DNA of 50,834 nucleotides from Folioceros fuciformis (lineage: Eukaryota), in the NCBI GenBank assembly GCA_049999805.1, contig JBNGIO010006284.1:352001-402834 (forward strand), read 5' to 3'. Positions within the stretch are counted from its first letter, which is position 1. Every line of letters begins with the position of its first letter. Below are positions 8,679 to 50,834 of this stretch, piece by piece. The notes below the pieces were generated by a model. That model searched no databases, had not been told where the DNA came from, and saw only the letters and a list, made by a program, of their open reading frames with translations. Position numbers and translations under genes: made by a program.

Positions 8679-9987
8679 CGCTCTAAGGCTTCCCCTTGCT
8701 CCTGCTGTTGCTACTTGCCGCATCTGTGTCTGGATTTGTATTGGAACAAAGCTCACTTGCAGGACCCTCAGGCTCGGTTCTCCCTCGCCCGGTAGCTAGT
8801 GTTGGAATTTTGCTTCACTCTCAGAGTGCAGGATTGGTACCAGGACATGCATTGGCTTGAGGACATGATATCTACTTCTTTTTCTCCACAAGGCACTTGG
8901 TCTGTTTAGTATTCTTTCTATGTTGTGGAAGAGCAACAACAGCAATACGAGGCCACCATCAAGTTTGTCAGTCTGCAGGCAACATAGCACACAATAGGAC
9001 ATCAGTTTTTCCCCCTTTTCTCTTTCCGTGACGAAGATGTTCAGGAGTGTATTTCGTTGTACCCTCTGGGACTGTTTTCTCTAAATCTATACTTGTTGCA
9101 CAAGACTTCTCTTCTCCGTTTCTTTCTGGCTGTGAGCGTCTCGGTGTCTCCATTTGGTATGATGGATGAACACCTGTCGGGAGCTAACTTCTCCTTCAAA
9201 ACAGAGCCGAGAAGCCTGGAATTTATTTATACCACTCTGCCAGGGCCCATTTGTGCAAGCCGCATGTTGTAAGCCCGCCCCGGTTTTGTGGGCAGTTCGT
9301 GGAATCTATCTTCGGGAGCCAAATCTCGTAGGAGTGAGCTGCAGGATCGCAGCACCAGCTCTGTCGTTTGAACTGCCGCTTGTTCATCAGTTACTGTCCA
9401 TTCGAAGCCTTCCAGAGCACGATATTCGGCTTCGCACGAGGTGTCTGTGATCTGCCTGCAACTGTTGGCTGTCGACGCCAAGCAACCAGTTCACAAAGTC
9501 TCTTTGATACACGATTATGTACGCCTGCACCGTAGCCCGTCATGACTGTTGCCCATTGCCTTGTGGGCATGGACGTCAACAGTGTACTGCTTGCTCTACG
9601 TTGCATGAGAGCACACTGCTGGTGAAGGACTCAGTCCTCAGATGCTGCCACAATGCACGAGCATGAAGAAGGGTACTCGGGGTTGCAACAGGTGACACTC
9701 GGTCACTTGCGTGTTGGAACAATCAAACGGAAAGCAGAGGATGGGCTGCATTGGTGTCGTTTACTCACTAGCCACGGCTGCGGTGGGAGGATCTACTCGA
9801 CAGTTACCAGGGCAGGGGCCTGGGGAGACAGCAGGGCTTTGCTCCGGGGGGTATCCTGGCAACCACAAGGGTCCAGGTCCGAGTCCGAGGACAGCGTGGG
9901 GATCTATCGTCTTTGAGGACGGCCTTGTTGTGGTGCCATCAATGGGAAGGAATAGCCTGCTGCTGTGTGGTGGCGGCAGGGAAGTTC

Positions 9988-18055: not shown

Positions 18056-20733
18056 ATGGCAGCATTGCAGAACAACTTCCATAATCCGGACTTCGTGCAC
18101 AGCACGTCAGGGGGGAAGTTGTGGGTTAATGGACGCGGTTCGAAAGACAGCGCTGTGAGGCCTGTAGTCGAGCACGGAGCTGAGTGTGAGGCTTCTGGCA
18201 GGTTGTGCGCAGTCTTCTTGTCTGCGTTCAGCTGGTTTTGATGAGTTAAATGCGCCTGTTGTGTTCTACACAGAGACTCTTTGTATCTTTCAGGTGTGAG
18301 AATGATTCGGAGGAGACTGAGACATGGGAAAGACTGTGTGAGGAGGGGCAGCCGAGTGAGGCAGTGGCAGCTTTGGAGCATTTGGTGGGAAAGGGGACTC
18401 CGGTTCCTTTGTCCCTTTTTTATCGTGTCCTCAGAGGATGCATATTACAGAAAGATCTGGTTCTTGGCAGGCGTGTACACCACCTTGCTGTTCAGCGTGG
18501 GTATGATTCCAGCCCATTCTTAGCAAACCACTTCATCCGTATGTATGCATCTCATGGGAGTTTGCGGGACGCCAGACAGGTTTTCAGCAAACTAGCTTCT
18601 CCAGATCTTTTCACGTGGGCCTCCATTATTTTGGCTCATGCTGATCACGGACACCCTAAACAGGCTATAAAATTCTATCTACAGATGCGCCAATCGGATG
18701 TGAAACCAGACAGCTATACACTCGTGGCAGTTCTGAAAGCATGTGCTCGGGCAGTGGATCTGGTTTCTGGCAAAGAAGTTCATGCGGACATTTTGGATTG
18801 TGCAATTGAACCGAATGTATTTGTTGGAAACTGCCTTGTCGACATGTATGCGAAATGTGGGAGTCCGGTCCAGGCTCGGAGGGTGTTTGACAACTTGCCC
18901 ATGAAGACTGTGGTGACATGGAATTCAATGATAGCAGGGTATGCTCAGCACGGGCTTGGCCATGAGGCCCTTGAGCTCCATTCAAGGATGCAACGAGATG
19001 GCATCAGTGCTCCCAATCATGTGACTTTTCTGTGCCTGCTGAAGGCATGTGGTAGTGTGGGAGCTTTACATGAGGGGAAGGAGTTGCACTTGCAGATCAG
19101 GGAACGAGGCTTGGACTCGGACGTGGTGGTTGCCAGCAGCCTAGTGGACATGTATGCAAAATGTGGCAGCTTAGGAGATGCCCGAGCTGTGTTTGATAGA
19201 TTGAGCAAGAGAGATGTGGTGGCCTGGACTGCTATGATAGCTGGATATGTCCAGCATGGGTTTGGTCAAGAAGCGCTTGCACTCTACACACGTATGCAAC
19301 ATGAAGGTGTGATGCAAGCCAATCGTGTCACCTTTGCATGCCTCCTCAACGCTTGTGCCAGTGTTGGAGCTTTACGTCAGGGCAAGGAGCTTCACTCACA
19401 GATCCAAGAAAGCAGGCTGGAAGGTGATGTGGTTGTCGGCAGCAGCCTGGTGGACATGTATGCAAAATGTGGGAGCTTAGAGGATGCTCAGAAAGTTTTT
19501 GACAGACTGCCCGCGAAGAATGTGGTGACATGGAATGCCTTAGTTGGGGGCTATGCTCAGCATGGACTTGGGCAGGAAGCCTTGGATGTGTACAAAAGGA
19601 TGGTGCTGGAGGGCGTTGCAGCCGACCGTGTGACGTTTTCGTGCTTGCTGAAAGCATGTGCGAGCATAGGAGCTGTGGATCAGGGGAAGCAACTCCACTC
19701 ACACATCCAGGAAAGACGACTTGAATCAGAGGATGTGCTGGCCAGCTGTCTGGTAGACATGTATGCCAAATTCGGGAGCTTGAATGATGCTCGGGAGCTG
19801 TTTGACAGATTACCCAGCAAAGATGCGGTGACATGGAATGCGCTTTTGAATGGCTATGCCCAGCACAACAATGTGCAATTGGCGATGCAGTGCTTCGAAG
19901 AGATGCGGCATCATGGTGTCCACCCCAACAGCTCCACATTTGTGGGTCTACTTGTGGCATGTAGCCATGCTGGCCTGGTGGACGAGGGTAAACAGTATTT
20001 TGCTGCAATGAAGGATGCCCATGGCATCGAGCCGTCGGTGTACCACCACAACTGCATGGTTGATCTCCTTGGACGGTCAGGCCGGCTGGATGAAGCAGAA
20101 AAGCTCTTGCAGACCATGCCACACAACACCGACATCGTAGGCTGGATCTCTCTCCTGAGCGCTTGCAAAAGCCATGGTGACGATACCCGGGCATGGAGAT
20201 GCTTCCACTCTATCACTGCCCTGGAACCTCAAAACTCAGCTGCCTATGCTCTGCTGGCGAGCATATATGCCTCAAGAGGCCGATGGGGAGAGGTAGAAGC
20301 CATCGAGAGCCTGAGAAAAGCTGCGGGTGCTTGCAAGAAGCCTGCGAGGGCCTGGATCGAGGTAAACAACAGGGTTTCTGCATTCATGGTCGGGGAAGAA
20401 AGAAATGACACGTCCTGCAAGCTGAACAGTGTGAACCACCAGTTCCTAGACCCAAGACCTCATGTTCACGTCCAACACTCCAAGCCGGTGACTGAAGCAG
20501 AAAAGGAAGACGCCCTATGTGGCCACGCTGAGAAACTGGCCTTAGCATATGGCCTTCTCAACACCCCAGACGGCACCACTTTACTGGTCACCAAGAACCT
20601 TCGTATGTGCGATGACTGCCACAACGGCACCAAGATGATGTCGAGGACGGAGAAGCGTGAAATCATCGTGAGAGACGCCCACCGAGTCCACCGCTTCCTC
20701 GACGGCTGCTGTTCTTGCGGTGACCAGAATTGA
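18056..20733 (+). CDS. PLS-E1-E2-DYW:KP (KPAxA-type) PPR protein, candidate RNA editing factor
   Basis: Main exon 18294-20733. Probable first exon 18056-18201 (ATG, GT donor, in-phase 92-bp intron). About 17 PLS motifs, E1/E2, then KKPARAWIEV...LCGHAEKLALAYGL...KNLRMCDDCH...REIIVRDAHRVHRF...CSCGDQN. Confidence 0.93.
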
Positions 20734-34042: not shown

Positions 34043-36427
34043 ATGGCTTCCAGACGTGCAGTTGTGACCATTTTTCGTCCCATTGCTGGATCACGGCGTG
34101 TTGCCTTCGGAATCGCTCTCCCCCGGGCTTGTGGTACGCCTGATGTCGTTCTTCCAGCTCCTTCTACGTCATCTTCATCCGAGGATGTCCCTAGGCCTTG
34201 TCGGGGAAAGGGTGCCCCGAAGGCCGCTGGCCGATTCTGGGACCGTCAGTTTCTGGCTTGGAGTGGGATGAGGCCTGGTAACGACTTGGCCGGGGTTCCT
34301 TGTTCGTTCGGTTTTGGACGGCAGTGTCTCCCTCCGTCCTCCTCCTGCCGACGGTTGGTCTCAAAGCCGCAGAGGAGCATCGTGGATGAGGACAGCGATC
34401 AGCCAGAGGTCAGCAGAAGCGAAGGCTACAGTTTGCGAGTTTTTGAGCTTCCTACCTGTAAAATTGTCATTTTGTTCAACGAGTTGGGCAGTATGTTGGA
34501 CTATTGCATAGCTGTCTAATGGGTTGCGTGGATGCGATTATTGCAGTTCTTGGACTTTCCTGGAATCAATGTTCACTATTCATACGAGATGAAGTTCATT
34601 CCTGAAGTTTCTGATGAGCCAGTTCCTTGTTACCGAGTTCTGAATGATGTCGGTCAGGAGCTCCACACCGTTCAAGCAAATCATGTAAGCTCCATGTGCC
34701 TAGTGATGCTTTTGTCCCTTGAATGGCAGCATCATCTGCGTTTTGTCGCATCATATTCGTCTTGTCAAATCTCTGTATGTCACAGGTACATTTTTCTCTG
34801 GCCAGAACGATGTACTCGCATATGATAACACTTCAAACGATGGATTTGATCTTCTACGATGCGCAACGTCAAGGAAGATTTAGTTTTTACATGACAACCA
34901 GAGGGGAGGAAGCAATAAACATTGCGTCAGCTGCAGCCCTACATCCTGACGACTTCATCTTTGCACAGGTGCTCTGTCTCTCGGAGATGTCTTTAATGTC
35001 AGGTGCCTTCCTCCTCCCTGCTGAAGCTGCAGGGCCTGACGCGCTCGGCTTTCTGCTGCTGCAGTATAGAGAGCCAGGATTGCTTCTATGGCGGGGTTTC
35101 AAATTGCAAGACTTTGCGGATCAATGCTTCAGTAATGCATCTGACGCTGGGAAAGGACGCCAAATGCCAATCCACTATGGATCGAAGGCGTTGAACTATT
35201 CAACGATATCCTCCCCTTTAGCGTACGCAGACTCATACAAGAAGCCACTCCACCCCTCTTTGCTCCTCTACAGTACTTGCCATGTCTATAGGTCGTCCGT
35301 AGAGGCACGTTTATCCACTGTTGGTATGCCTTGTACAGGACACAGCTTCCGCATGCGGTTGGGGCAGCGTATGCGATGAAAATGGCCAAGCAACGAGCCT
35401 GTACTGTTGCATTCTTTGGTGAAGGTGCTACCAGTGAGGTGGGCGTCAACCTGAGTCTGTAACGTTCCTACTCTTCTGTTCTTCAGCATGCAGCAATTGC
35501 AAAGTAGTATCGCTGACAGCTGTGCTGTGGATGTAGGGTGATTTCCATGCTGCAATGAATTTTGCAGCAGTACTGGAAGTTCCAGTACTGTTCATCTGCC
35601 GTAACAATGGGTGGGCTATCAGTACTCCATCGACTCAACAGTACAAGGGTAGATTCTCAGCTAATACAGTCACCTTACTGCTGCAGCAATGGTTTAGCAG
35701 GAGGACCTCTCACCTCGTTAACCTCCGTGTTTCACATACAGGCGACGGTCTTGTTGGTAAAGGACGAGCGTATGGAATGAAAAGCATTAGGGTTGATGGC
35801 AATGATGCTTTAGCTGTCTATGGTGCTGTGAAAGAAGCGCGAAGGATGGCTGTAGAAGAATCGAGACCGATCTTCATTGAGGTGAATCCGGAAACCCTAG
35901 TTGCTTCCCCGTACAGCACACTGCTTGTGTAGTGCGCTTTACTTTCTTTCTGGTATTCTCATCTGATGGCTCCCTTTGCTGGCAGGCATTGACGTACAGG
36001 GTGGGTCATCATTCGACATCTGATGACTCATCCAGATACCGTTCAGGAGCTGAAATTGAGCATTGGAGAGATGTCCGCGACCCTGTCCTTCGATTCAGGA
36101 GATGGATCGAGGGCAAAGGGTGGTGGAATTCGGAGGAGGAGCAGAAGATAAGAGCTCAAGCGCGTAAAGAGGTTCTGATCATACACAAACTCACTCTGCT
36201 CAGTTCCTCGTTCTCTCCTACTAGTACAGTTGTCTAAGACATGCCCTGCCCCTTTGCAGGTCTTGTCGGCCATGACTCTTGCTGAATCCAAGAGAAAACC
36301 CCCGTTGTCAGATCTGTTCACTGACGTTTACGACAAAGTCCCCAGCAATCTAAGGGAACAAGAAGAAAGCCTGCGACAAACTGTTGCCAGATATCCCTCG
36401 TTGTATCCAAGCAACACCCCTGTGTAA
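34043..36427 (+). CDS. BCKDHA: Branched-chain 2-oxoacid dehydrogenase E1 alpha subunit, mitochondrial
   Basis: Inferred exons 34043-34408, 34547-34684, 34786-34968, 35065-35222, 35339-35438, 35537-35648, 35742-35881, 35986-36171, 36260-36427. Motifs [33 protein letters not shown]-binding [16 protein letters not shown]...CRNNGWAIS, and [12 protein letters not shown]. Confidence 0.95.
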
Positions 36428-36841
36428 ATATGGGCGTGGTAGAGTTCCTGACACCATACGTAGGATGTAAAGTACGTAGTTGCGCTTAATTCTCTGGCTT
36501 TGATCTTGCGATTCCAGGTTGTAAAATAGGTATGTACATGGTTACGAAGAACATCGCTCCTTTGGACCCGAGCGTGAATTGTTTAGGTACACCCGCCAAG
36601 CTTGGCACACTGCTTGTTGGAAACAGCACATCACTGCAAGTGTGCTGAGGCTTTCACATAGTATGAAAAATGGGTGTCCCGAGGTTTTTGGAAAACCATC
36701 CATTTCGTTGCTGTTCCTGTTGATGGGCTGACTGGCTTCGCGTTGTGGTACTCGGTTCGCGGTTCTCAAAGCACAGAAGGGTTTGCGGAAGTCTTGTGAC
36801 GCCGAAGACACGGACGGTGTCATTCAATAGCGCGACCGGCC

Positions 36842-37744
36842 ATGGCGCCGGCGGCACGGCTGCTGCTGCTTCTGGCTTTGACAGCTTTGTGTGTGCCAGC
36901 GCTGGCCGCGAAGAAGGTGACCTCGGCCCGCAAAGAGGATGTGAAGTTCATCAGGTGCGGGGTGTGCGACCACATGGTGAAGCAACTGGATGCTCAGGTG
37001 AAGGCGCAGAAGGAAGCAATTGCTCCTAAGAAGCTAACAGAGTTCCAGATCATCGAAATTGCGGAGAACATCTGCAGCTTGAAGAAGGCAGAGGGGGAAT
37101 GGATGATGCGGATTGACATTGTTGAAGCGGGAACGAAGCTGGAGCTTGTGGAACAGTCAGAGGAAGGAGAGTGCAAAACCGAGTGCAAGACCATCGAGCG
37201 CGCATGCCAGGAGGTTATGGGAGATCACGACACAGATGTGGCGGAGAGCATTTATAACAAGCATACTGACGGTGATGCGCTGCATAATCTGCTGTGCAAA
37301 GATCTGAGTAAGGCTTGCAAGTATCCTGCTCCGCCTGTGCCGAAGAACAGAGCTCCAGGTGAGCCCTTCTCTCCGAAGAGCTCCAAGGATGCGGAAATCG
37401 AGCGGCTGATGCGCTCCATGAGCGACATCCCTGGAGCAGGGGGCATGAAGATGTACTCCAAGGATGATCTCCTTTCTTGGCCTGGCGTTGGGGGAGACGA
37501 TGGCGACCAGTCCGAGCACGAGGAAGATGAGGAGGATGACTTCGACGAGGACGCGTATGTCTCTCCTCCAGTAAATTCCCGAAAGCCTAATGCGAAGGCG
37601 TCAGGCTGGCGGGCACGGCGAGATCTCATCCTAAGCGGAATTGGCAATGTTGTCTCATCGGCAACAAGGCAGTTTCAAGATCTGGTAACTAACGCCAAGT
37701 CTCTCTTACGGTCCATAGCTCCAGCAGCAAACGTGGAGTTGTAA
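36842..37744 (+). CDS. Canopy/saposin-B-like ER protein (DUF3456-like), intronless
   Basis: Hydrophobic signal peptide, CGVC and CKTECKTIERAC cysteine pattern, LCKDLSKAC, acidic stretch, C-terminal NVEL (ER-retrieval-like). Confidence 0.82.
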   Translation: MAPAARLLLLLALTALCVPALAAKKVTSARKEDVKFIRCGVCDHMVKQLDAQVKAQKEAIAPKKLTEFQIIEIAENICSLKKAEGEWMMRIDIVEAGTKLELVEQSEEGECKTECKTIERACQEVMGDHDTDVAESIYNKHTDGDALHNLLCKDLSKACKYPAPPVPKNRAPGEPFSPKSSKDAEIERLMRSMSDIPGAGGMKMYSKDDLLSWPGVGGDDGDQSEHEEDEEDDFDEDAYVSPPVNSRKPNAKASGWRARRDLILSGIGNVVSSATRQFQDLVTNAKSLLRSIAPAANVEL

Positions 37745-38067
37745 TGTAATGCAGTCTCTGTTTCGTCGTGCGGCTTGGTGAAGCTTGCATTACAGACATG
37801 ACAAATTGAATCAGGAAAGGGATAATTTCCCTACAGTTTTGAGTGACTTCTGAACCCTTGTTCCCTCGCTAGTCAAACTGCTTTCTTGAGAAATGGTTCC
37901 ATGAATATGTCGCAAAGGGTTTACAAAGATGTCGTGGGACGCGCTTCTGCAACAGTTCTGTACAAGTGACTCGTGTATCATACTAGAGAGGTTCCTGATA
38001 CTGCTCTGGACATAGTACTATGATCTTCACCCTTGAATTGGGGAAAAGGATCAGCTTCCTCAAGGTC

Positions 38068-39092
38068 TTATTTCTTGAAGATGTTCTTGATCTCGCCTGA
38101 GGTTACCAGCTCCTCTAAGACGTCAGCTCCTCCGACGAACTCTCCCTTGACATACAGCTGCGGAATGGTAGGCCACTGGCTGTATGTCTTGATGGCCTCC
38201 CTCACGCCTCGGTTGTGCTCCTCATCAAGAACATTGACAGTCTCGTAATCCACACCCTGCTCGTTCAAGATGGTGAGCACCTTGTGCGAAAATCCGCACT
38301 GAGGAGCTGTACGAGACCCTTTGATGAAGGCAACCACAGAGTGCGACTTCACCACAGTGTCCAGCAGCTGCTCCAAGGTGATATTCAGCTTGGTGTCGGC
38401 CCTCGGCATGAGCTTTAGATCAGCTTTCACTCGCTTCGCCTTCCTCTCTGTCCAGGTGGTGTTGCCCTGCACATTCCCCACAGGGACCTTGCCTGTTGCA
38501 TCGATGTGCTCTTGCATCCAAGCTTGCCATGCTTCCGAGAGCGCTGCCCGATCTGGAGCATCTATGACATCGACCTGAGAGGTTCAGAACGGCAGCATCA
38601 GCAACGGGACCAGGCCAATCAACCCTAGCCATGGTACAACCAGGATATCCAGAAGGGACGGGGTAATGGATCAGGCACCTTGACAGAGCCACAGAGCTCG
38701 GGAAGCTCCTGCAGGTGGTACTGAATGCTGGTGGAGACGCGTCTCGACAGTCCGACGTACTGGAGCTCGCCTTCTTTGTCGTACACAGCGTACACGCCCG
38801 GCGAAGCAGGAAATTCATTTGCCTTACCATCCTCCCCGAGGAACGGCGCGGCCTCGACCTCCTGAATCCTCCTCACTGCGCGCACAAGGAACGTTCGCGA
38901 ACCAGACGCATCCGTCCTTCTGGAGGAGGAGATGGACAGATGCACTAGCCCCTGTCTCTGGATCCGCTCCCGAAACGAGATGCTTTCTGGCAAAGCCCGG
39001 GAGCAGGAGACAGATTGCCACGCTCTGGGCCGGGCTCCACCAGAGCGGGTTGCACCAGAGGTGCAGGCGGTGGATGTGAGCGTGGACGCCAT
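38068..39092 (-). CDS. GRXS16: Chloroplast GIY-YIG plus monothiol glutaredoxin S16
   Basis: Exons 39092-38679 and 38574-38068. Ser/Arg-rich transit-peptide-like N-terminus, GVYAVYDKEGELQYVGLSR (GIY-YIG-like), PQCGFS active site, WPTIPQLYVKGEFVGGAD. Confidence 0.93.
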
Positions 39093-39681
39093 AGCCAAAG
39101 CTTGATCCACTCTTCCTGGGTCCAGAGGATGGGCCTGCACAAAGGGGATCCGGATTCTCGTGTGAAACCAACGTTGAGGATAGTGTTTGCTGATTGCACT
39201 GGCCCTCACATTTTGGATGTTGCAGATGACAAGATGTTGCAGAGCCGCTGAGTTGCAGCAATACAAACGTTGTATGAAGCACGATCTCACTCCACAGTTA
39301 TCGGGCCTCACTCTGATATCATCGTCAAGTACCCAGGAGTGTATCTGCAGGAGAGCACAAGCTGCACCGGTCCTTCTCGAGATACCCCTCTTCCGTTTTA
39401 AGTTAGCTTTGGCGAGTGTTATTAGGAAGCAAGCCATCCATCTATTTCAGAACGAAGAAATCTATTTTACAGCTCTTGTGCGACCAAAAATGGTGCAATG
39501 GCTCGCTAACGAACATCTGAACAGGACTGTATTATCGTGTGCAGGCTGCTACTCCGCATTACGGATTCCCGGCTCTGTGGAGAGAGAAGCCCTAGAACGT
39601 GCGCGAATTCACGACTGGTTCAGGACTCGCCCACGATGGCGATAGCGATTCCGCTGCTTTGGACGACGGAGGAATTGTGAA

Positions 39682-42600
39682 ATGCTGACCATGTCTTCCA
39701 CGTTGGGCAGCGTGTGGGTCTCTGATCACAAGTGGTATCTGGCCACCAGCTTGGGGGATCAGAATGCTGTTTCTCTCGCTCCATGGAGACCCAGATTTCA
39801 CGGGAATGGAAATACTGAGGTTCGGAGTCAGGTCACCTGTTCCACGTCTGATTGTGTGCATAGGGGCTTGGGGAGCAGCATGAGGGCGACGAGCAAGGGC
39901 AGGAGGCGGCGGGAAGCCACTGGGAGTGCGGCAGAGGCTGCAAGTCTGGAGGAGGTTCAACAGCAAGGGGAAAGGGACGAGGCGGAGTCCCGGTTGAATA
40001 CTCCAGGGGATCCTGGCAAGGTGTTTGTCTCCAATTTGCCGTTGCATGTACAGAAGGAAGCTATCAGGAAGTACTTCAGGCAGTTCGGGCAGATTGACAA
40101 CATTGTGCTCATCAGAAGCTTGGAGGATCCAGAGAAAAACAGGGGTTACTGTTTTCTGTATTATGGGGGTCTGGATGCGGTTGCTTCTGCCGTGCGGGCC
40201 ACGGAGATGGACGGAGCCAAGTTCCATGGGAACATTATCAGTGTGAGACTCGATGATGGCCGGAGGGCGAGAGCTAAGCTGCAGGAGAGAGACAGGTGGG
40301 TGCAGGGGGAGGAGAAGGAGTACCGGACACCGTGGCATGAAGAGCGAGAGAGAGCCGCCATTGGGTTCAGGAAATGTGTTGAGCAGGGGAGCAATTCGTT
40401 GCAGCAAGTGGTTTCGGCTTTTCAAAAGATTGACAAGGTACTGTTTGATTTGTTTGGCGAGGAGTAAGTGTTAGCTGTGTGTCGAACATATGCCTAGGAG
40501 TAGCTGCTATGGGAGCATTAAGTTGGGAGTGGCAGGTGGGGGTCGTCCTTTCTGTCGAAGGGTTCTGGGATGACATGTAGAGTTTTGATTTTTTTGGTTT
40601 TCCAGCCAGATCGACGGGACTATGCATTGTTCGTAAATTACTATGCAAAACGTGGTGACAAGCATGGTGCTCGTGCAGCATTTGAGAACATGCGGGCGCG
40701 GGGAATTGAACCCAATGTACACGTGTATACCAAGTAAATCCTTCAACTCTGGTGGCCGGTAGTGAGTGAGTGTCTGTCACACATGTTCGTTGTATGTAGG
40801 TTGGTGGTGCCGTGAGATGCCTGAGGCCAGCATGGGTTGGGCTTTTTCACTTTTTGGGTTCACCTGCAGCCTAGTGCATGCGTATGCTATGAGCAAAGAC
40901 ATGCGTGGAGCAGTGGCATGCGTGGAAGACATGGAGGCTGAAGGCATTTCAATGAGCGAGGCTACGTACAGTGTCTTGATCTCTGGGTTCGCCAAGTGCT
41001 GTAACTCTGAGTACGGGTTCTGCCACCGTCTGCCTGGGATTTGCCATACTGGAGAGCTGGCTTTTTTATTTGCTTCGGCTTCTGCCTTCACACGTACGTC
41101 ATCTGGCAGGGATGCAGAGAAATGGTTCCAGAAAGCTAAGGCATCACATTGCCCTTGTAATGCTGTTATATACAACAATATAATCAACGCATACAGGTTA
41201 GCCCTGCCCCGGTGATGGTTACCCACGTGTTGGTGTAGCTTCTGTAAGCACTGAAACTGGGGCTCCAGGAGCTGCAGCCTGCTAAGCTTACTGTCCAGGT
41301 GACACCTTCACAATTTCTTCCTTGGTCATTGGCGGAGGGAGATCATGAGGGGCTGAATCCCGGTGTGCATTGTGCTGTTCACCGCGGAGTATGTTCTGAA
41401 GGTGTAGCTATGCTGGACAGAAGGCTTCGCAGGACACAGCTCCTGGAGCCCGGGGTTGAAAGCTCTACAGCTAATGTGCTAGTCACGGTTGCAGCAAAGC
41501 AGGAAAGATGACAAAGGCAGAAGAGTTGTTGGTTGAATTGGAAGAAGAGGGACTGGATGTGACACTAGGATGCTACAACAGTCTTTTAGATGGATATGCA
41601 AACGCTGGGGAAGAGGAGAAGTGCTTAAACGTCTTTTCTAGGTTGCAGGTACTGCTCCCCTTGTATTAGATTACTGATAGCGCCTGCTTGAGGGTACTTT
41701 GTGTTTCACAAGTAAGAGCTATTTCTCATCTCGTTTTCTTGAATTGTGTTTCAGAAAGCTGGAATGTCTCCCACGAGTATCACATACGGATGCTTAATCC
41801 GTCTGTATACAAAGGTAAATCAGAATGGAAGCGGGTGACGTGAAGTTCGTGGCAAGCTCGTTGGCTTTCTTCAAGTATTGCACATACTCATCAGTATCAC
41901 GTGGACGTGCAGGTCGGGAGGATTGCAAAGGCACTTGCTATCTGCAACGAAATGAAAGTGCAGGGTATCCCGCACAACAAGAAGACGTATGCAATGATTA
42001 TGGCTGGTTATGTTCAGCTGGGAGATTTTGCAAATGCCTTCACCATCTTTGAGGAGATGATGGAGCTTGGTCTGAAGCCAGATGTTGTGATCTACAACAT
42101 CTTGATAAATGCCTTTTGCAAGACCTCTCAGATGGACCGTGCATGCAGCCTAGTTACGCGCATGAGGGAAAATGGGCAGAGCCCCACTGCTCAGACGTAT
42201 ACAACCATCATTGATGGCTTTGCTCGAGTTGGCGATATCGATACTGCTCTTTCAACTGTTCGAGATATGAGAAAGGCGGGGTGTTGGCCTAGCGCTGTGA
42301 CATATAACGTAATAATGCATGGGCTTGTGCAAAATCGCCAGGTATGTGTTTGATACATCTGAATTGGTGAAGGGTATGTTCGGAAATGAAACTGCTGAAA
42401 TTTGCCTCCGTGTCAATCAAATCTGGGTTACTTGTTGCTGCAGGTCGGAAGAGCTGCGGCTGTTATTGATGAGATGGTTCTCGCTGGGGTTGCGCCAAAC
42501 CAAAGGAGCTATTCCATCCTCATGGAGGGTTATGGAAACAATGGGGAGATCGGTACTGCCTTTGAGTACTTCAAAAGGATGAAAGCTGAGGGTTTGCAAC

Positions 42601-43572
42601 TGGATGTAGTGTCGTATGGTTCTCTCCTCAAAGCGTGTTGCAAGGCGGGCCGGATGCAAAGCGCCCTTGCCGTCACAAACGAGATGAGTGCCGCGGGAGT
42701 GGAGAGAAACACTTACATCTACAATACCCTTCTCGATGGGTGAGTTCTCTGTGCAATAAAATAGTTTGCATAATTCTCAGTTTACAAAACGGTATGCTGG
42801 CAGCGCTAAGACGTTCACCTTATTTTCAGCTGGGCTCAAAGAGGAGATATGTGGGAGGCAGCAGATGTGATGCAGCAAATGCGCAAAGATGGCCTCGCGC
42901 CAGACATCCACTCGTATACTGCCTTTGTCAATTCCTGTTGCAAAGCAGGAGATATGCAGGTAGGTATTCTCACTGGACTATCTTTGCAGCTCAGGTGCTC
43001 GTATCCGCACCCTCTCGGCAACGAAGGCGCAATTCTTGTCACTGACGTGCAATTGTTGTTGTTCACAGAGAGCAGTAGACACATTGCAAGAGATGAAGAG
43101 AGTGGGCGTCGAACCCAATTTGAAGACTTACACATCCTTGATCCATGGATGGTCAATAGCATCCTACCCTGAGAAGGCGCTAGCATGCTTTGACGAAATG
43201 AAGGCTGTGGGCCTGAGACCTGACAAAGCTGTCTACCACTGTCTGATGACATCCCTACTGTCAAGGGCAGCCGTAGCAAGGCAAACCGTCTACGATGGCG
43301 TGGTCCGCATCAGCGATGAGATGGCAGCCATGGGTATGTGTGTGGACATACCCACCGCTAAGCACTGGCAGAAGTATCTTTTCAGAGCCGAAAGAATGGC
43401 CGGTGACCTTACCAGAGTTGTGGAAAGAATCTTCCCGCCGGACTGGGATCCAGATTGGCATAGAAAAGCTGTAGAGGGTGAGTTAGACGGATCCAACAGC
43501 TCGTGGGATAGTGGACTCTCGGAAGACGAACTTGATTCGGAGTCCGAATTCGACTCTCTAGAGCCAGAGTAG
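39682..43572 (+). CDS. PPR4: Chloroplast RRM plus P-class PPR protein, PPR4-like (plastid rps12 trans-splicing factor family)
   Basis: Inferred exons 39682-40437, 40606-40733, 40870-41010, 41110-41196, 41495-41648, 41755-41814, 41913-42341, 42444-42739, 42830-42959, 43069-43572. RRM (KVFVSNLP...NRGYCF), EYRTPWHEERE, P-type PPR array, C-terminal GDLTRVVERIFPPDW. Confidence 0.88.
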
Positions 43573-44244
43573 TGCTACAGGAGTCCTGTATAGATTGTTG
43601 AGACACAGCATTTCGGACTGTTCATAGATGCGAAGCAGACAGTTCTGTTGTGACTCTTTTTTTCTAAACTTCGCTTGCTGACAGGGGGTACGCAAAAAGG
43701 AACCTGAGCGAGTCAGGAAATCTGTTCGCCAATATCTGTCTTGCCACGTCAAGATCCACCGTGTTGCGGCTCAGTTCCCGACGATGAATCTTGGAAGGGT
43801 GAATTTACCTCGGGGTAGGAATCCTGGATCTCTGGCACACATTGGTGGTGAATTTGGAGTCGTGAAGTGTCCTCCGACCTGATCCAAGGGCAGGAAAGAG
43901 CCTTGAGGAACAGAGGAGAGAGGCAATGAACCTTGGCCTTGTGCATGTACTGTATATCCTTGGGTTACGAGGATTGAGATTGCTCTTGGGCCCTCGAGAC
44001 TCGATTTTGTCCGCTGACTTGGACTGGGCCGCCGTATTTCGCTTTGGCACTTAGAAGCTGAAGGACTTGTGGGTTGTGCGGCCTTGCACTGGAAGTTGGA
44101 AGTGGCTTGCGATCGCAATCTGAGATCCAGAGGCAGTTGTGAGTTGGGGAATGCGAGGGTGAGGCTGTGTAATCGGGGGTGATCAGGCTCCTTCTGATTC
44201 GACGCTGGGAGGCAGGATTTTAGCTGAAGAGTGGGGGGGGCGCA

Positions 44245-45565
44245 ATGGCGGTGGCAGTGTGGGCAGCTGGGCAAGTGGCGGCTGTAGGCTACAATGCTCT
44301 CAGTTCTGGGAGGTCGCACCCGGGTGTGGGCATAGTGCAGCTCAGGAGCACCTTCCATGGCAGCTCTCCTCCCTTCCTGGGTGCCTCCAGGTCTGGGTTT
44401 CAAGGCCAGAGTTGCGTGGACTTGAGCCTGGTGAGGGAGGCTGGAGCTGAGGACAAAAAGGGAAGGCTGACCACATGCATGGCCTGGGGAGGGGCTTTGG
44501 CTGCTGTTCGTCTCATCATCCAAGGCAAGAATTTGGAGGTAACGACTTCCTGGGACTGTGAGGTGAAGTCCCAATTGAGGCTCTCCGTGGGCGGGCTTGG
44601 CGTTTGCTAACATGTTGGTTGCAGTTGACGGACTCGATCAAGGCTTATGTCGAGGAGAAGGTGGGCAATGCTGTCCAGAATCACGGTAATCTTGTCAGGG
44701 AAGTGGATGTGCGACTGTCGGTTCGTGGTGGCGAGACTGGGCGTGGCCAAAAGCTTCAGAGATCGGAGGTATGACTGTTGGGTTCACTAGTAGTTCTTTC
44801 GCATGAGGGGGTAGCGTCTCTATCAGTTTGCGAGTTCGTTGTGCAGGCAGGCTCCTTTGTCGGTACTGTTGATGGTTGCGTTCTGTGCAGGTCACGTTGT
44901 TCACAAAGAAGCATGGAGTGGTGCGAGCAGAAGAGGAGTCTGACAGCATGTATGCGAGTATTGATAGGGTTTCCGACGTCATATCCAGAAAGCTCCGTAA
45001 AATCAAGGAGAAAGATGGTGGACAAGGCCGCACTTACAAAATGCGACACCAGCAGTCCCGTATCGGAGAACTTCTGTCGGACCAAGTGGTTGACCTGGCA
45101 CCCATTCTAAGGAAAGAGCCTGATGACGACTTGCCGGATGAGGTATGCGCCATCTTGTTTGCCAAGCACTGCTAGGGGGCGCACGTTCTTGTTTCTGATT
45201 CCTGCTGGTTCCTCCTGTCTGCTTCCTTCTCAGGTGGTGAGAACCAAGTACTTCGACATGCCACCCATGGGGGTCGAAGATGCTCTGGAGCAATTGGTGA
45301 ATGTAGGCCATGACTTCTATGCTTTTCGCAACTCTGAGACAGGTAACGAACATTTATTCAGGCCGGGCTCGGTCCAGACTGTCACGCCTTCCAAACGCAG
45401 TTCCTTCCGTCGTTTTCGACCGTTCAGTATGGCTGACGTCTTGTTCTGTTTCTGTCAGGCGACATTAACGTCCTGTACAAGCGAACACACGGTGGATATG
45501 GAATGATCGTGCCCAGGAGTGAGGGCTCGTGGGAAACCTCGAAGAATGGTGCACCCAAGAAGTGA
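44245..45565 (+). CDS. PSRP1: Plastid ribosome hibernation factor PSRP1 (HPF/S30AE family)
   Basis: Inferred exons 44245-44538, 44625-44768, 44891-45142, 45234-45342, 45459-45565. Motifs [77 protein letters not shown]. Confidence 0.93.
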
Positions 45566-46448
45566 TGGGGAGCTTGCTCTACTGTGATCTGTTTTGAATC
45601 ATGTCATCTGGTACTTCTTTCCTGAGCATTACTAGATGGCAAAACTGCTACAGAAGCGAGTAGGAAGCCATTTCAAGTGACTGTGTAGCTGAATGCGGAT
45701 GTCTTCACGTCCATGACTGCTATCACACACAGTACCTAGATACAACATGATTCGTCTGATCTGGAAGTAGAACTGGTTGCCGAATGCATGTGTCCTGTGG
45801 TCGGGACCGCCAGAGAGGAGCCCGGCGTCTGGGAAGCAAAGGGCGCCATGCCAACTTAGAGTGAATTTGCAGTCCGTGGTGGCAGCCAACAAAGAGCTTT
45901 CGTCCAGCGTTTGGGGTTTGACGAAAATAATCTCACAGAAGGGCCGGGACCTCTTCCAGCTTCTAGACTATCCTGGGACCCTCTGCCAGCTATCTAGACT
46001 AGCCTTCACATGAATTCTCATTTCTACAAACAGGGTCGTCTACTCAACCGACGTGTTTTAGCACCCGCTAGATACTTCAATCAGAAGTCTTTGGCGTGCA
46101 AGGAACACGTAGACGAGCCCCGCGAAGGAGCAAAGGTTCCACGAGGTCTCAGTGAGAAGCACCTGTGCCTCCGAGGCCCCAAGACAGACACCCAGCATGA
46201 AAATTGCGTTGCCATGAATATGCCTAGTTGCAACTGCACACCCTGTGTGAATGAATGCCTAGATGTGCTTGTGGCGCAAAAGAAGCGTGTTGGACTTGTT
46301 ATCTCCCGATTACTGTACATACAAAGACACTGAAGCTTGTTGGAAATGGCGGGAGGGCAAGATTCCGGGGATACTATGTCGTGAGATCCAACTTCAAATG
46401 CTGAAACTCATAATCAACCCTTGCCGTCTTACTGCACTTCCGTCAGGA

Positions 46449-49400
46449 TCAGGGCTCCACACGGAGTAGATTGTTTTGGACACTGGTATCGCGCATGACC
46501 ATCTCCCTGCGGTGGTCGATGGTCCAGATGCCATCCACGATGAACTTGATCTCATAAACTCCAGGGTAGAGCAGCAAATCCAGACCCCAAAGCATGGGCC
46601 CTCGAGAACCGTCAAAATTGGGTATCTCAGACCTAAGATCTGGCTGAAAAGGGAAAAAATGTTGCCAGCCATTAAAACTGCCAGCCAGTTCGACTTTGGT
46701 GCCTTCCCCCCACCATTCAACAGACACCTTCTTGAGCCGTGACACGGCCACCTCAGCATCCTGCAACTTCCTCCTCTCCTCTTCCAATTCCACCTTGGCT
46801 TGAGCAATATCCGTGGAAACTTTGCCTTGCACGAGCATAAGCTCAGCTTTCATTTCTAGCAGCTCTTGTCTAAGGCTTAAGACCTCCGCTTCTCGGAGTT
46901 GTAGGGCTGATTTGAGGCTATCAATCTCAATTTGTGCCTGTTCCTGGAGCTGGACATCTACCTCCTTTCGTTTCTCTGCCAACCGCCCTATTTCTTGCTG
47001 CTTGGCCAAAATGCTGAAGATAATCCGATCTCTATCCTGCTGCTCAAAAGTTGCGTCCAAAGCAGACTCCAGCTGCAACTTTGCTTGCAGGATGGGACCC
47101 ATTTGTGCGGCAATAGTCTCCTCCCTCTCTGGGACGACACCATCTGGTTGATCTGCTTCCCAAGAGAGACCATCGGAGTGATAGTCATAATCTGCAATCC
47201 TCTCAAAGCCCTGGACATCGTTCATAGCAAACATTTCCTCGTTCCCTTCTTGAGAGTTCACCTCGTCATCTGGCTGCAGGCCAGAGCTTGCAATATCAAT
47301 TTCTCCGAGTGCTTGGGGCATGGCAGATTCATTCGGCCACAAATTTCCGTCGTTGTTAAGTTTCTTAGCTTCCTCTAAGACACCGGACTTCGTGTCCTCT
47401 TTGTCACGCCACTCAGTTCTTGCTCTGAGAGATTCCCGCAAGACTTTCAATCCTTCAGCACCTTTCCTAATCTCCAGCAGCTTCTGCCTCAACTGATCTC
47501 GAGTCTCCCTTAGCTTCTTGGTAGAATCTTCTTGTCCTGTGCTGAGCTTACCAATACCACCAATACCGCCAGATGGGGTTTCAAAGGTCCCAGACTCTTC
47601 CACAATGCTCGGCAGACCTGTGCTCAAAAACAACCGTGCCCTTTCCTGGAATGACAAGTGGCAGACAGTCCTCTCATCCGGAACACCCTGTGACTGTGGG
47701 TCAGATACAACAGGACTGACACTTTTACTCACCGGATTCACAAAATCTTGTTCTGAGACTGGAGCAGAACCCTGCTGTGCTAAGTTATCCGTCTCAGAGA
47801 GTTGTCCTTGTTCTGCACTCCTTTCAGACTCTTGCAGAATGCTCGACAGTCCCGTGCTCACAAACAGTCTTGCCCTTTCCTGGATTGACAGGTCAAATAC
47901 AGACCTCTCATTTGAGACAACTTGAGACTGTAAGTTAGGGACAACTGGACTTACATTTTTAGTTCCCGGATTTGTAGAGTCATATTCAGAGACTGGAAGG
48001 GAACTCTGCTGCACTGATCTCCCCTTCTCCGAAAGTTCCCCATGTTCTGTCTTCAGCTTTTCAACACCGCCAGATGCGGTTTCCAAATTTGAAAGTCCTG
48101 TGCTCAAAAACAACTTTGCCCTTTCCTCGACAGACAGGTCAAAGAGAGACCCCTTGTCTAGAATAGCTTGAGCTTGCAAATCAGTTACAGCAGGACTGGT
48201 ACTTTCCGTCCGCACATTTTCAGAATCCTGTTCTGTGGCCAAGCCCGATCCACCCTGCCATGAATTCTCTTGCTCAGAAAATAGTCCTGTTTCAATATCC
48301 AGCTTGCCAAAATCACACAATTGAGTTTCCAAGCTTCCACGCCCTGCTAGAAGGCTAGACAGACCTGTGTTCCTTGCTTTTTCCTCAATTGGCAGGTCCA
48401 AGTCATTCCTTTCATCTAGACCAGCATGAGATTGTAGCTCCTGAACAACAAGACTGTCCCTTTCAGTCTGCATAATTGTAGACTCTTGCTCTGTGATTGG
48501 AACAAAACCCTGCTGTCCTAATTTCTGCCTCTCGGTAAAATCTCCTTCTGTCGTGTTCAGCTTGTCAATATCACCAGATGGGGCCTCAAAACTTACCGAG
48601 CTCAGAAAAAACCTTGCTCGTTCCTCAATTGACAGATCCAAGACAGATCTCTCACCTGAACCAGCCTGAAACTGAGGCTCCTGTACAACAGGAATATCAT
48701 TTTCATTCCACAAACGATCATTGGACTCTTGCTCTGTGATTGGAACAGAACCCTGCTCTCTTGATTCCTGCTTGTCCGTAACTTCTTGTGCTGTTTTCAG
48801 CTTGCCGATGCCACCAGATGAGGCTTCCTGAGATTGTAGCTCCTGTACAACAGGACTACCACTTTCAGTCCGCAGTTCTACAGACCCTTGCTTTGTGCGA
48901 GGAACAGAACCTTGCTTAAGTAAATTCTCTGTCTCGGCAAATGTTCCGTCTGATGTATTCAGCGTGCCTGTACCACCTGATAAGGCTTCCAAGCTTTCTG
49001 CACTCAGAAACAACCTATCACTTTCCTCAATTGACATGACCAAGACAGACCTTTCATCTGAACCAGACTTAGATTGCAGCTCCTGTACAACAAGACTGTC
49101 AATTTCAGTCGACACATTTGCAGTATCTTGCTCTGTGATTGGAACAGGACCCTGCCGTCCTGATTTCTCCATTTCAAAAAGCTCTCCTTCCGCTGTATCC
49201 AGCTTGTCAATAACACCAGAAGGAGCTTCAGAGCTGCCCGACTCTTCCAGAGGGCTAGACAGTCCCTTGCTCGAAGGCAGCATCTCTCTTTCATACGCTA
49301 GCAGATCAAAGACATAACTCACATCTGAATCATCATGAGATGGTGCGTCAGGTACAGCCAGACTGACCTGTGCAGTCCCCAAATTTTCAGAATCATGTTC

Positions 49401-50834
49401 TGTAGTAGGAGCAAAGCTCTGCTGTTCCAAAGCATGCCCCTCACTGCGGAAAACGTCAGGTTGTTGTGCTCCGGTTTCAGAGCTTGCAGACTCGTGTACT
49501 CTGGACTCTTCCAAAAGGCTTGGCAGTCCTGTACTCGCGAGTAAAGTTGTTGTTTCCTCTCGCGACAGTCTTGAGACAGACTTATTCTCTGTACCAGACT
49601 CGTATCGGGAGGGTTGCACCACAGGATTGATATAGTCCACGTGCTGCAAATCTCCAGCATCCGAGACCAGGGACACAGAAGCCTCCTGCCCAACTGTTGG
49701 ATACTTGCTAATTGAAGCCGAAGCAACTGGTTCTGTGGAACTGGAGCTTGGAGCTTGTTCCTGGATATTGGTCTGGCCTGTAGCCACACACAACCTCGCT
49801 CTTTCCTCTGATGACAAGTGTAGCAAAGACCTCTCGGTTGTGCCAGCCTCAGGTTGCAGGCGTTGTTCACTAGGACTGACATTTTCTGTACCCTGTTCTG
49901 ATACTGAGTCGGAGGCAACCTGCCCTAAGAAGCTCCGCACCTCGGTAGGCAACGAAAGGTCCTCTTCTTGAGGAACCCCTGTTTCAGAGCTTGCAGACTG
50001 TCTTAGACTACTTGACTCTCCTGTACTCACCCACAAGCTTACTTGTTGCTCGGATGACAAGACCGAGACAGACCTCTCTTGTGAATCAATCTGAGGTGGC
50101 AAGCTAGATGCCACAGGACTGGAATCCTCGTGGAGACGATCCTGTTTCAAGACTGAGGAGATAGAAGCCTTCTGCTCTGAGGCCAACGCCGCCGCAGTCA
50201 CTACCTCATTTAAAGCTCCAACGTCCTCCCTCGGTCTGGGGACACCCACACTACTAAATGGCACCACCTGCTGAGTATTATCCTCAGCAATGACTTCACC
50301 TGGAGGACTGGCACGGCCGGGGTGCTGCAGTGTTGCAACATTTGGTACAGAAGGAGAATCCAGCCGTGGGAAGCTAAACCAACTCCCCCTGGCCTGTTCT
50401 GCACCTACATCCTCAATTTCCTCTGTCAATGCTTGCCCTGACACCACCTCTACCTGCACACTCACGTTCACACTAGAAGTTAAACTGCTCGCAAGCTCCC
50501 CCCTACCAGCTCGGCCCCCACAGTCAGAATCACTATTGCTCCCGCTGCTCGATCCTCTCCGAAATCTGGGATTCCCGAGCATGCGGCTCACAGCCTGATA
50601 CCCCCGACTCCGCACCGCATAAGCAAGATCCGAGCGACCCCTACTCGTCAGCTCCTTGATAGACGGCAACTGGTTGGCCGGCAGATCTTGCTGGGCAATG
50701 AATTGCGCCAACTGCTCCACCAGGAGAATGTCTTTCTTGCTGAGCTTTTCTCCGCCTATCTTCCTCCTTGCCTGCCGGTTCCCCTGCCCAAAACTGCCAG
50801 AACTAGAGCAAGTCACGCGGCAGAATCCCTGCGT
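46449..50834 (-). CDS. PROTEIN TARGETING TO STARCH (PTST3-like) coiled-coil plus CBM48 protein with a large internal repeat array, 5' end outside the window
   Basis: Frame is open to the window edge. N-terminal LPSIKELTSRGRSDLAYAVRSRGY domain typical of PTST2/3, a coiled coil, and C-terminal CBM48 (VELAGSFNGW...LYPGVYEIKFIVDGIW...NNLLRVE). No introns are needed across 4.4 kb. Confidence 0.87.
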   Translation of the reverse strand, partial: TQGFCRVTCSSSGSFGQGNRQARRKIGGEKLSKKDILLVEQLAQFIAQQDLPANQLPSIKELTSRGRSDLAYAVRSRGYQAVSRMLGNPRFRRGSSSGSNSDSDCGGRAGRGELASSLTSSVNVSVQVEVVSGQALTEEIEDVGAEQARGSWFSFPRLDSPSVPNVATLQHPGRASPPGEVIAEDNTQQVVPFSSVGVPRPREDVGALNEVVTAAALASEQKASISSVLKQDRLHEDSSPVASSLPPQIDSQERSVSVLSSEQQVSLWVSTGESSSLRQSASSETGVPQEEDLSLPTEVRSFLGQVASDSVSEQGTENVSPSEQRLQPEAGTTERSLLHLSSEERARLCVATGQTNIQEQAPSSSSTEPVASASISKYPTVGQEASVSLVSDAGDLQHVDYINPVVQPSRYESGTENKSVSRLSREETTTLLASTGLPSLLEESRVHESASSETGAQQPDVFRSEGHALEQQSFAPTTEHDSENLGTAQVSLAVPDAPSHDDSDVSYVFDLLAYEREMLPSSKGLSSPLEESGSSEAPSGVIDKLDTAEGELFEMEKSGRQGPVPITEQDTANVSTEIDSLVVQELQSKSGSDERSVLVMSIEESDRLFLSAESLEALSGGTGTLNTSDGTFAETENLLKQGSVPRTKQGSVELRTESGSPVVQELQSQEASSGGIGKLKTAQEVTDKQESREQGSVPITEQESNDRLWNENDIPVVQEPQFQAGSGERSVLDLSIEERARFFLSSVSFEAPSGDIDKLNTTEGDFTERQKLGQQGFVPITEQESTIMQTERDSLVVQELQSHAGLDERNDLDLPIEEKARNTGLSSLLAGRGSLETQLCDFGKLDIETGLFSEQENSWQGGSGLATEQDSENVRTESTSPAVTDLQAQAILDKGSLFDLSVEERAKLFLSTGLSNLETASGGVEKLKTEHGELSEKGRSVQQSSLPVSEYDSTNPGTKNVSPVVPNLQSQVVSNERSVFDLSIQERARLFVSTGLSSILQESERSAEQGQLSETDNLAQQGSAPVSEQDFVNPVSKSVSPVVSDPQSQGVPDERTVCHLSFQERARLFLSTGLPSIVEESGTFETPSGGIGGIGKLSTGQEDSTKKLRETRDQLRQKLLEIRKGAEGLKVLRESLRARTEWRDKEDTKSGVLEEAKKLNNDGNLWPNESAMPQALGEIDIASSGLQPDDEVNSQEGNEEMFAMNDVQGFERIADYDYHSDGLSWEADQPDGVVPEREETIAAQMGPILQAKLQLESALDATFEQQDRDRIIFSILAKQQEIGRLAEKRKEVDVQLQEQAQIEIDSLKSALQLREAEVLSLRQELLEMKAELMLVQGKVSTDIAQAKVELEEERRKLQDAEVAVSRLKKVSVEWWGEGTKVELAGSFNGWQHFFPFQPDLRSEIPNFDGSRGPMLWGLDLLLYPGVYEIKFIVDGIWTIDHRREMVMRDTSVQNNLLRVEP
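47530..50090 (-). repeat. Coding repeat array, ~10 diverged copies of an ~80-aa unit
   Basis: Recurrent (D/E)ERSV(L/F)DLSIEERARLFLSTGLSS...GKL.T...QQGSVPITEQ(D/E)S...SPVV.(E/D)LQSQ, also visible at the DNA level (e.g. ctctgtgattggaaca at 48490, 48732, 49131). Confidence 0.9.

Follow-up and report, generated by a model that had tools for sequence, protein, structure and literature searches.

PTST2 and PTST3 are described as non-enzymatic coiled-coil proteins of plastids that carry a CBM48 module, take part in starch-granule initiation and are partly redundant. PTST2 is reported to bind malto-oligosaccharides as well as SS4, MFP1 and MRC, and in the accounts on which we draw PTST2 is the only reported interactor of PTST3. 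In this work we analysed a PTST3-like gene at the end of a 50,834-nucleotide stretch of Folioceros fuciformis DNA (assembly GCA_049999805.1, contig JBNGIO010006284.1, positions 352,001 to 402,834), called the window hereafter. Its product carries ten copies of a motif that vascular-plant PTST3 proteins have only once. In the literature searched on PTST2 and PTST3, alone or together with hornworts and bryophytes and supplements aside, we found no account of a bryophyte PTST, of a motif in the middle of the protein or of an amplification of such a motif.

The gene occupies the minus strand as a single stop-free frame of 1461 codons, which runs from the window edge at 50834 to a TGA at 46449-46451 and is open at its 5' end. 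About 40-50 codons lie beyond the edge (in blastp, residue 3 of the window protein pairs with residue 45 of P0002, a protein of 1064 residues from a public read assembly), and the missing residues are presumed to be a transit peptide. From N to C terminus, the protein comprises a helical N-domain, an S/G/R-rich linker, a repeat array of 892 residues, a coiled-coil-like stretch and a C-terminal CBM48 (Table 1). The latter is the sole Pfam match of the protein (PF16561, E 2.6e-12). It aligns to the carbohydrate-binding module of the beta-1 subunit of AMP-activated protein kinase (1z0n, E 1.2e-6) and keeps the FNxW, KFxVDGxW and NN positions, which we take to be the glycogen contacts of that module. 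The N-domain has no Pfam family. It bears the signature F..x..GLP...PS.KEL...GR.DLA..VRRRGY, with its invariant columns within residues 45-86, and AlphaFold models it as four main helices and a short fifth, with a mean predicted local distance difference test (pLDDT) value of 78.8. This fold had no Foldseek match at E <=0.001, and the best VIA-align score (Z 4.4; TetR-N, Myb and homeodomain-like three-helix folds) is below the bar for small helical domains. The longest Pro/Gly-free stretches, three in all, are found at residues 1248-1375 and are heptad-enriched according to a crude script rather than a dedicated coiled-coil predictor. By eye, the last ~20 residues of the acidic linker that precedes them open a block also present in fern and moss homologues, and a second such block is found at the start of the coiled coil.

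A search with the C-terminal 312 residues returned 185 shorter homologues. Among the 120 matches listed, a lycophyte, ferns, mosses and two EukProt algal records come at the top, followed by seed plants; the listed proteins are 89-630 residues long, with 40-58% C-terminal identity between vascular-plant PTST3 and the window protein, and all 20 that bear a PTST name are called PTST3, none PTST2. An alignment of 25 sequences has invariant columns in the N-domain, the coiled coil and the CBM48, with L/E/K columns conserved in the coiled-coil part. A maximum-likelihood tree built on the last 240 residues of 26 chosen sequences groups the window protein with P0002 (support 99/96) outside the mosses, lycophyte, ferns and seed plants. 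Judged by homology, the protein is a member of the PTST3 family, as announced by the original prediction of a PTST3-like starch-binding protein of more than 1450 residues, which the length of the frame, the CBM48 and the PTST3-named homologues bear out; neither the tree nor the matches listed contain a PTST2, and orthology to PTST3 rather than PTST2 is suggested by these names. A plastid location is probable from homologues named 'chloroplastic', and glucan binding and a role in granule initiation may be expected from what is known of the family.

The array was delineated with a hidden Markov model (HMM) seeded with six strong units, the five remaining ones being independent of its building. 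Eleven matches were obtained over residues 209-1100 (window 47535-50210), which correspond to ten full units and one unit devoid of its core. The non-seed units have independent E-values (i-E) of 8e-8, 2e-8, 5e-13, 6e-11 and 3e-23. In the array minus its seeds, domain scores reach 71, 38, 32, 23 and 20, against 10.5 for the best of 500 composition-preserving shuffles. The about ten copies of an ~80-residue unit that had been noticed by reading the sequence are thus firmly recovered. The bounds first given to them, 47530-50090, open at the first core and close with the last unit; by its HMM envelope, the first unit begins about 40 residues earlier, at 50210. Full units are 78-92 residues long, with 78-89 residues from core to core, and the alignment of the ten gives the consensus ..QQGSxPxTEQDSxN..SPVVQxLQSQxGSDERSVxDLSxEERARLFxSTGLSS.. 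In each unit, three spacer blocks of weak conservation accompany the core DERSVxDLSxEERARLFxSTGLSS, which agrees with the ERSV.DLS.EERA.LFLSTG pattern of the original prediction. Six of the ten cores keep a near-full consensus, those of R1, R3, R4 and R8 being degenerate.

The array is rich in S (16%), E (11%), L (10%), V (8%), Q (7%) and G (7%), and is acidic (pI 4.34, net charge -83; pI 4.54 for the whole protein). Its units share 43-76% DNA identity. They are too diverged at that level for Tandem Repeats Finder, which reported two trivial micro-repeats only and left the array unseen. At the protein level, R1-R3 are the most diverged (18-37% identity with the others), and R4-R11 are 28-56% identical to one another. 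A search of 1.84 billion representative proteins with the ten-unit profile produced a single match, P0127 (149 residues, E 1.9e-4). We rejected it as a relative of the array: it matches spacer positions 13-44 only and has an unrelated-looking triple repeat of its own. Because that search recovered neither the window protein itself nor P0002, it argues neither for the absence nor for the novelty of orthologues. A PDB sequence match of the same profile (chain SAKeCEref) falls in the spacer part, has no stretch passing alone and was judged compositional. The ESM Atlas gave no usable match to R5-R11.

The origin of the core can be traced within the family. All 21 vascular-plant-type sequences aligned have a single motif, S-L-x-E-K/R-A/V-A-x-F-V/I-x-T/N-G-x-L-D-x-x-E-D, between the N-domain and the coiled coil. 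These 21 motifs, the ten window cores and two motifs of P0002 align without gaps apart from the cores' own deletions, with I/L, E, R/K, A, F, V/I/L, T/N, G, L/I, E and E/D as common positions. Profile-profile alignment with hhalign places cores and motifs in matching register over 23 columns (P 0.0064). An HMM built from all these motifs was run on 126 proteins with a cut-off of i-E 0.01 and matched 99 of them; exactly one copy was found in 97 of the 99, and 21 of these 97 are training members of the model. P0002 has two copies by this model and four by eye, and the window protein has eight at that threshold and ten with its own HMM. No match was obtained in the 27 remaining proteins, namely mosses, the two EukProt algal records, Closterium, fragments shorter than ~320 residues, three angiosperm sequences and a fused Musa model. 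A core-only HMM made from the window repeats alone was too weak to recover the single motif of other plants.

These alignments identify the repeat core as the PTST3-family motif in amplified form, and amplification is common to the clade of the window protein and P0002, with differing units. The statement in the original prediction that angiosperm PTST2 and PTST3 are short and carry the motif once or a few times is correct for PTST3, going by the lengths and copy numbers above; PTST2 is not represented in our set. Besides P0002, the long PTST-like proteins (803-2557 residues) amount to three models fused to other enzymes (two from Salix, one from Musa) and one Closterium protein. The latter (P0126, Closterium sp., 1657 residues) is an algal CBM48 coiled-coil protein with two N-terminal domains, a long G-rich filler and no copy of the motif. 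In a Populus protein (P0102) and related sequences of 580-630 residues, extra degenerate half-motifs of the LS.E.K type are visible by eye upstream of the full motif; they are sub-threshold in the HMM.

The cores are clearly under tighter constraint than the spacers. Over the 45 pairs of full units, the pooled Nei-Gojobori ratio of non-synonymous to synonymous substitution rates (dN/dS) is 0.47 in the 23 columns of the core as compared with 0.70 in the spacers. The corresponding figures among the younger units, R5 and R7-R11, are 0.29 and 0.74; the spacer values are blurred by an alignment less certain than that of the cores. The original prediction had staked itself on the conservation of the cores, which these ratios bear out. 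With synonymous divergence (dS) of 0.6-1.0 between units, the array must be made of old units that have been maintained. An AlphaFold model of R11, computed with the paralogous units as alignment, has a helix at unit residues 54-64 (FQERARLFLST; 10-residue blocks with pLDDT 86 and 75) and a short second helix at residues 69-73, with pLDDT <60 elsewhere. The younger cores have hydrophobic moments of 0.3-0.5, which makes 'amphipathic' a fair description, although not a striking one. Ten conserved short helices are thus predicted on poorly conserved, low-confidence S/E/Q/G-rich spacers, which makes the middle of the protein a sticker-and-spacer-like array and bears out the comparison with such repeats in the original prediction.

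The array is kept in the transcript and the gene is expressed. A 7495-nt contig of run X1 extends unbroken over 45456-50834, free of joints, indels and mismatched bases. Fifteen GT..AG (or CT..AC) joints are listed from X1 contigs in neighbouring genes, and none from the DNA runs X2 and X3. The 'RNA' label of X1 is a guess only, and we treat this run as spliced RNA because its contigs bear such joints and those of X2 and X3 lack them. None of the joints listed lies inside the PTST3-like open reading frame (ORF). As the ORF is covered in full by spliced-RNA contigs that show no joint in it, the repeat region is not spliced out; its removal by splicing would have refuted the original prediction.

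We favour the idea that this is an expressed PTST3-family gene in which a single docking helix of the middle of the protein now exists in ten copies separated by acidic flexible spacers, making the product a multivalent glucan-binding adaptor; we give this reading a probability of roughly 0.55. The C-terminal CBM48 would hold malto-oligosaccharides or nascent starch, and the coiled coil would mediate pairing, either between copies of the protein or with a different initiation protein of the coiled-coil type. Each helix, with its S-cap, the I/L-E-E-R/K-A-x-x-F-L/V-x-T-G stretch and then L..L-E-E, would bind one copy of a ligand, the same as that of the single motif of vascular-plant PTST3. The result might be a high-valency hub in which many ligand molecules are gathered on one glucan-bound scaffold. 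Since the core corresponds to a motif present once in ferns, a conifer and angiosperms, all pyrenoid-less, the ligand is probably ancestral. As a matter of pure conjecture, each core may be a binding site, for which PTST2 may be the ligand. The 'candidate multivalent plastid scaffold' of the original prediction appears to us a fair reading of a PTST3-like CBM48 protein with a constrained helix array that is retained in its transcript.

Several points weigh against a multivalent adaptor. To our knowledge, no binding partner of the motif has been reported in any species. The profile P value of 0.0064 is modest, which is due to the shortness of the motif, and comes from one comparison. Three full-length moss proteins and the two algal EukProt records have the N-domain, the coiled coil and the CBM48, and the motif goes undetected in them; the motif thus seems dispensable for the core job of the family. 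Given the degenerate cores of R1, R3, R4 and R8 and a spacer dN/dS of ~0.7, not every copy need be functional. The RNA label of X1 comes from a tool's guess, although its spliced joints argue for RNA, and two X1 joints exist beyond those listed. Lastly, the ten-unit profile search does not make copy numbers comparable across close relatives.

It is also conceivable, and in our opinion rather unlikely, that the expansion is mostly neutral. Unequal crossing-over in an intronless gene would have inflated a disordered linker, leaving one or a few cores at work, as in other plants, and an array that otherwise keeps the N-domain apart from the coiled coil and CBM48 as an acidic entropic spacer. The spacer dN/dS, the core-less unit, the degeneracy of several cores and the absence of the motif from mosses are what one would expect in this case, and the P0002 unit, which differs in length (~118 residues), includes extra W-containing blocks and is present in ~4 copies, indicates that the array is evolutionarily plastic. 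However, neutrality does not readily account for cores that are more constrained than spacers (0.29-0.47 versus 0.70-0.74), for an 892-codon frame that has remained open despite near-saturated synonymous divergence, or for the six cores close to the full consensus.

A link with the pyrenoid has been proposed for this protein, and two versions of it can be envisaged. In the first, which we hold to be quite doubtful, the protein would be a land-plant counterpart of the Chlamydomonas proteins SAGA1 and SAGA2: the amplified PTST3 helix would have been co-opted, and a dimeric, glucan-bound scaffold would cluster the starch-initiation machinery in a condensate-like hub, located at a defined site beside Rubisco/RbcS-STAR bodies or the thylakoids that surround them in a giant pyrenoid-bearing chloroplast. 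Were this true, copy number would track pyrenoid or chloroplast architecture across hornworts. In the second version, more improbable still, the ten helices would themselves be the Rubisco-binding (or RbcS-STAR-binding) motifs of the lineage and link CBM48-bound starch or malto-oligosaccharides to the pyrenoid matrix, thereby setting the site where starch starts relative to the pyrenoid. The combination of a carbohydrate-binding module, a coiled coil and a repeated short motif is the layout that the SAGA1/SAGA2 paper predicts for equivalents in other lineages, and that paper also reports a predicted structural similarity of SAGA proteins to PTST2. The position in the tree, the compact genome rich in PPR-E and PPR-DYW genes (PPR, pentatricopeptide repeat) and a GC content of ~50% fit a hornwort. 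The hornwort linker screens, as published, would have missed the window protein with its acidic array and its units of 84 residues, as one required a pI >8 and the other a period of 40-80 with a repeat content >=0.8.

Nevertheless, several observations go against such a tether, and the pyrenoid and Rubisco part of the original prediction is not upheld. The motif is an ancestral one, present as a single copy in vascular plants that have no pyrenoid. The array is acidic, whereas the published linker screens want a high pI. The Chlamydomonas-type Rubisco-binding motif, in the pattern used here, has no match in the window protein. In addition, the pyrenoids of Anthoceros agrestis are described as having no starch sheath, and hornwort Rubisco as being condensed by RbcS-STAR. 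The 'EPYC1 analogue' of A. agrestis reported in a preprint was considered as a possible identity and set apart by its description: it is said there to have no predicted fold and comes from a screen that the window protein would fail.

The cores might instead dock in trans on the protein's own N-domain or CBM48, giving a PTST3 network or condensate with no external ligand. We consider this very unlikely. Helix 1 of the N-domain ends in F.S..GLP, reminiscent of the FLSTGLP of the core, and profile alignment of the two is weak (12 columns, P 0.03), a likeness so short that it may be due to chance; nothing positive speaks for self-association otherwise. A complex prediction of one unit with the protein's own N-domain and CBM48 had a score of 0.00 (mark 0.34), with alignments unused and the partner fold uncertain. 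Finally, a mis-assembled or pseudogenised region is hardly credible: the window edge cuts the gene and short-read DNA contigs break inside it, but the frame is unbroken over its 4.4 kb and is spanned entirely by one spliced-RNA contig, the DNA contigs listed over the gene from a second sample are identical in sequence, and the domains at both ends are conserved.

Whatever its ligand, this gene has revealed a conserved helical motif of PTST3, between the N-domain and the coiled coil, for which we found no published description, and shows a tenfold multiplication of that motif, under purifying selection, in one lineage of plants. For a multivalent adaptor as we favour it, a natural ten-valent version would ease the hunt for the ligand, as avidity aids pull-downs. 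The array might also be used as a ready-made scaffold for engineering the number or placement of starch granules. In a pyrenoid-bearing hornwort, the protein would have the architecture that published work on SAGA proteins predicts for starch-positioning proteins outside the Volvocales, with a bearing on pyrenoid-based carbon concentration in crops.

Table 1. Parts of the PTST3-like gene and its product, from the stop codon and coding sequence to the domains in N- to C-terminal order. Positions are those of the window.
Feature	Residues	Window position	Strand	Basis
TGA stop codon		46449..46451	-	
Coding sequence, 1461 codons, intron-free within window		46452..50834	-	ORF; gap-free RNA contig
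N-terminal helical domain, PTST3 family	22-98	50541..50771	-	13 invariant columns in 25 sequences; AlphaFold
S/G/R-rich variable linker	99-208	50211..50540	-	No conserved columns in 25-sequence alignment
R1 (core from residue 251; most diverged)	209-288	49971..50210	-	HMM i-E 8.2e-8, non-seed
R2 (core from residue 332)	289-372	49719..49970	-	HMM and unit alignment
R3 (core from residue 415)	373-456	49467..49718	-	HMM i-E 1.9e-8, non-seed
R4 (core from residue 503, degenerate)	457-543	49206..49466	-	HMM i-E 5.3e-13, non-seed
R5 (core from residue 592)	544-630	48945..49205	-	HMM and unit alignment
R6, truncated (spacer blocks only, core deleted)	631-678	48801..48944	-	HMM positions 4-44 only, i-E 5.9e-11
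R7 (core from residue 726)	679-762	48549..48800	-	HMM and unit alignment
R8 (core from residue 806; 3-residue deletion in helix)	763-845	48300..48548	-	HMM and unit alignment
R9 (core from residue 892)	846-930	48045..48299	-	HMM i-E 2.8e-23, non-seed
R10 (core from residue 974)	931-1008	47811..48044	-	HMM and unit alignment
R11 (core from residue 1052)	1009-1100	47535..47810	-	HMM and unit alignment; AlphaFold helix
Putative short basic heptad-like helical stretch just after array	1102-1137	47424..47531	-	Suggested by crude a/d-position enrichment
Acidic linker	1138-1247	47094..47423	-	Composition
Coiled-coil-like region adjoining CBM48	1248-1369	46728..47093	-	Pro/Gly-free runs, heptad enrichment, conserved columns
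CBM48 glucan-binding module	1370-1460	46455..46727	-	Pfam PF16561, E 2.6e-12

Over its 4.4 kb, the PTST3-like gene is free of introns, and its neighbours (36000-46000) have four to eight introns each, of ~90-300 nt. A 586-residue algal homologue stems from a 7.5-kb locus according to the name of its record. The intron-free state suggests intron loss or an origin by retroposition (retrogene). RNA joints give four introns for the convergent neighbour (43894-46448, plus strand), whose exon at 44562 looks, by eye, like a ribosome-hibernation or PSRP1-type protein. A single RNA contig holds both this neighbour and the PTST3-like gene, and the 3' ends of the two genes must therefore abut or overlap.

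Elsewhere, the window harbours about a dozen genes in 50 kb, among them intronless PPR-E and PPR-DYW genes, with a GC content near 50%. A stop-free frame of 1628 codons (9772-14658, plus strand) is full of PPR repeats with two E-motif matches (best at residues 1522-1584); it looks like two tandem PLS-E PPR genes in one frame, or a fused gene. An intronless PPR-E-DYW protein of 827 residues is encoded at 18250-20733 (plus strand; DYW_deaminase E 3.8e-32), with a C terminus ending in ..GDQN rather than the usual DYW tripeptide. Two stop-free frames of 922 and 770 residues (1307-4075 and 4257-6569, plus strand) are S/P/E/R-rich, match no Pfam family at E <=1e-5 and may be exons of a single large disordered protein.

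Among known systems, the closest counterpart of the window protein is vascular-plant PTST3, in which the N-domain, the motif, the coiled coil and the C-terminal CBM48 follow one another in the same order. The window protein differs from it by its size (at least 1461 residues versus 89-630 in the sequences listed), ten copies of the motif instead of one, the acidic array of 892 residues and the lack of introns within the window. P0002, its sister in the tree, is 51% identical to it over the C-terminal 257 residues and 49% over the N-terminal 154, and has an amplified motif as well. However, the ~4 units of ~118 residues found at about residues 300-750 of P0002 consist of the core followed by GW[AS]R.D and G[LQ]GR.QQ blocks without counterpart in the window protein, and the spacers of the two proteins cannot be aligned. 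PTST2, also called FLO6 or BGC1, is likewise a granule-initiation protein with a coiled coil and a CBM48, reported to bind malto-oligosaccharides and SS4 and to be a partner of PTST3.

The SAGA1 and SAGA2 proteins are similarly large scaffolds, proposed to be granule initiators, that combine a starch-binding module with a coiled coil and several copies of a short motif. As published, they differ from the window protein by an N-terminal CBM20 in place of a C-terminal CBM48 and by a Rubisco-binding motif containing W, absent from the window protein, and they are restricted to the Volvocales. The likeness is therefore one of analogy, not of homology. As for the pyrenoid linkers EPYC1, CsLinker and PYCO1, they share with the window array the sticker-and-spacer principle, with short helices every 60-90 residues in disordered sequence, and the repeats that oscillate between order and disorder are found here too, in ten units whose helix is predicted with confidence only at the core. 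In contrast, EPYC1-type linkers are described as basic and made almost entirely of repeats, whereas the window array has a low pI of 4.3 and is flanked by folded domains.

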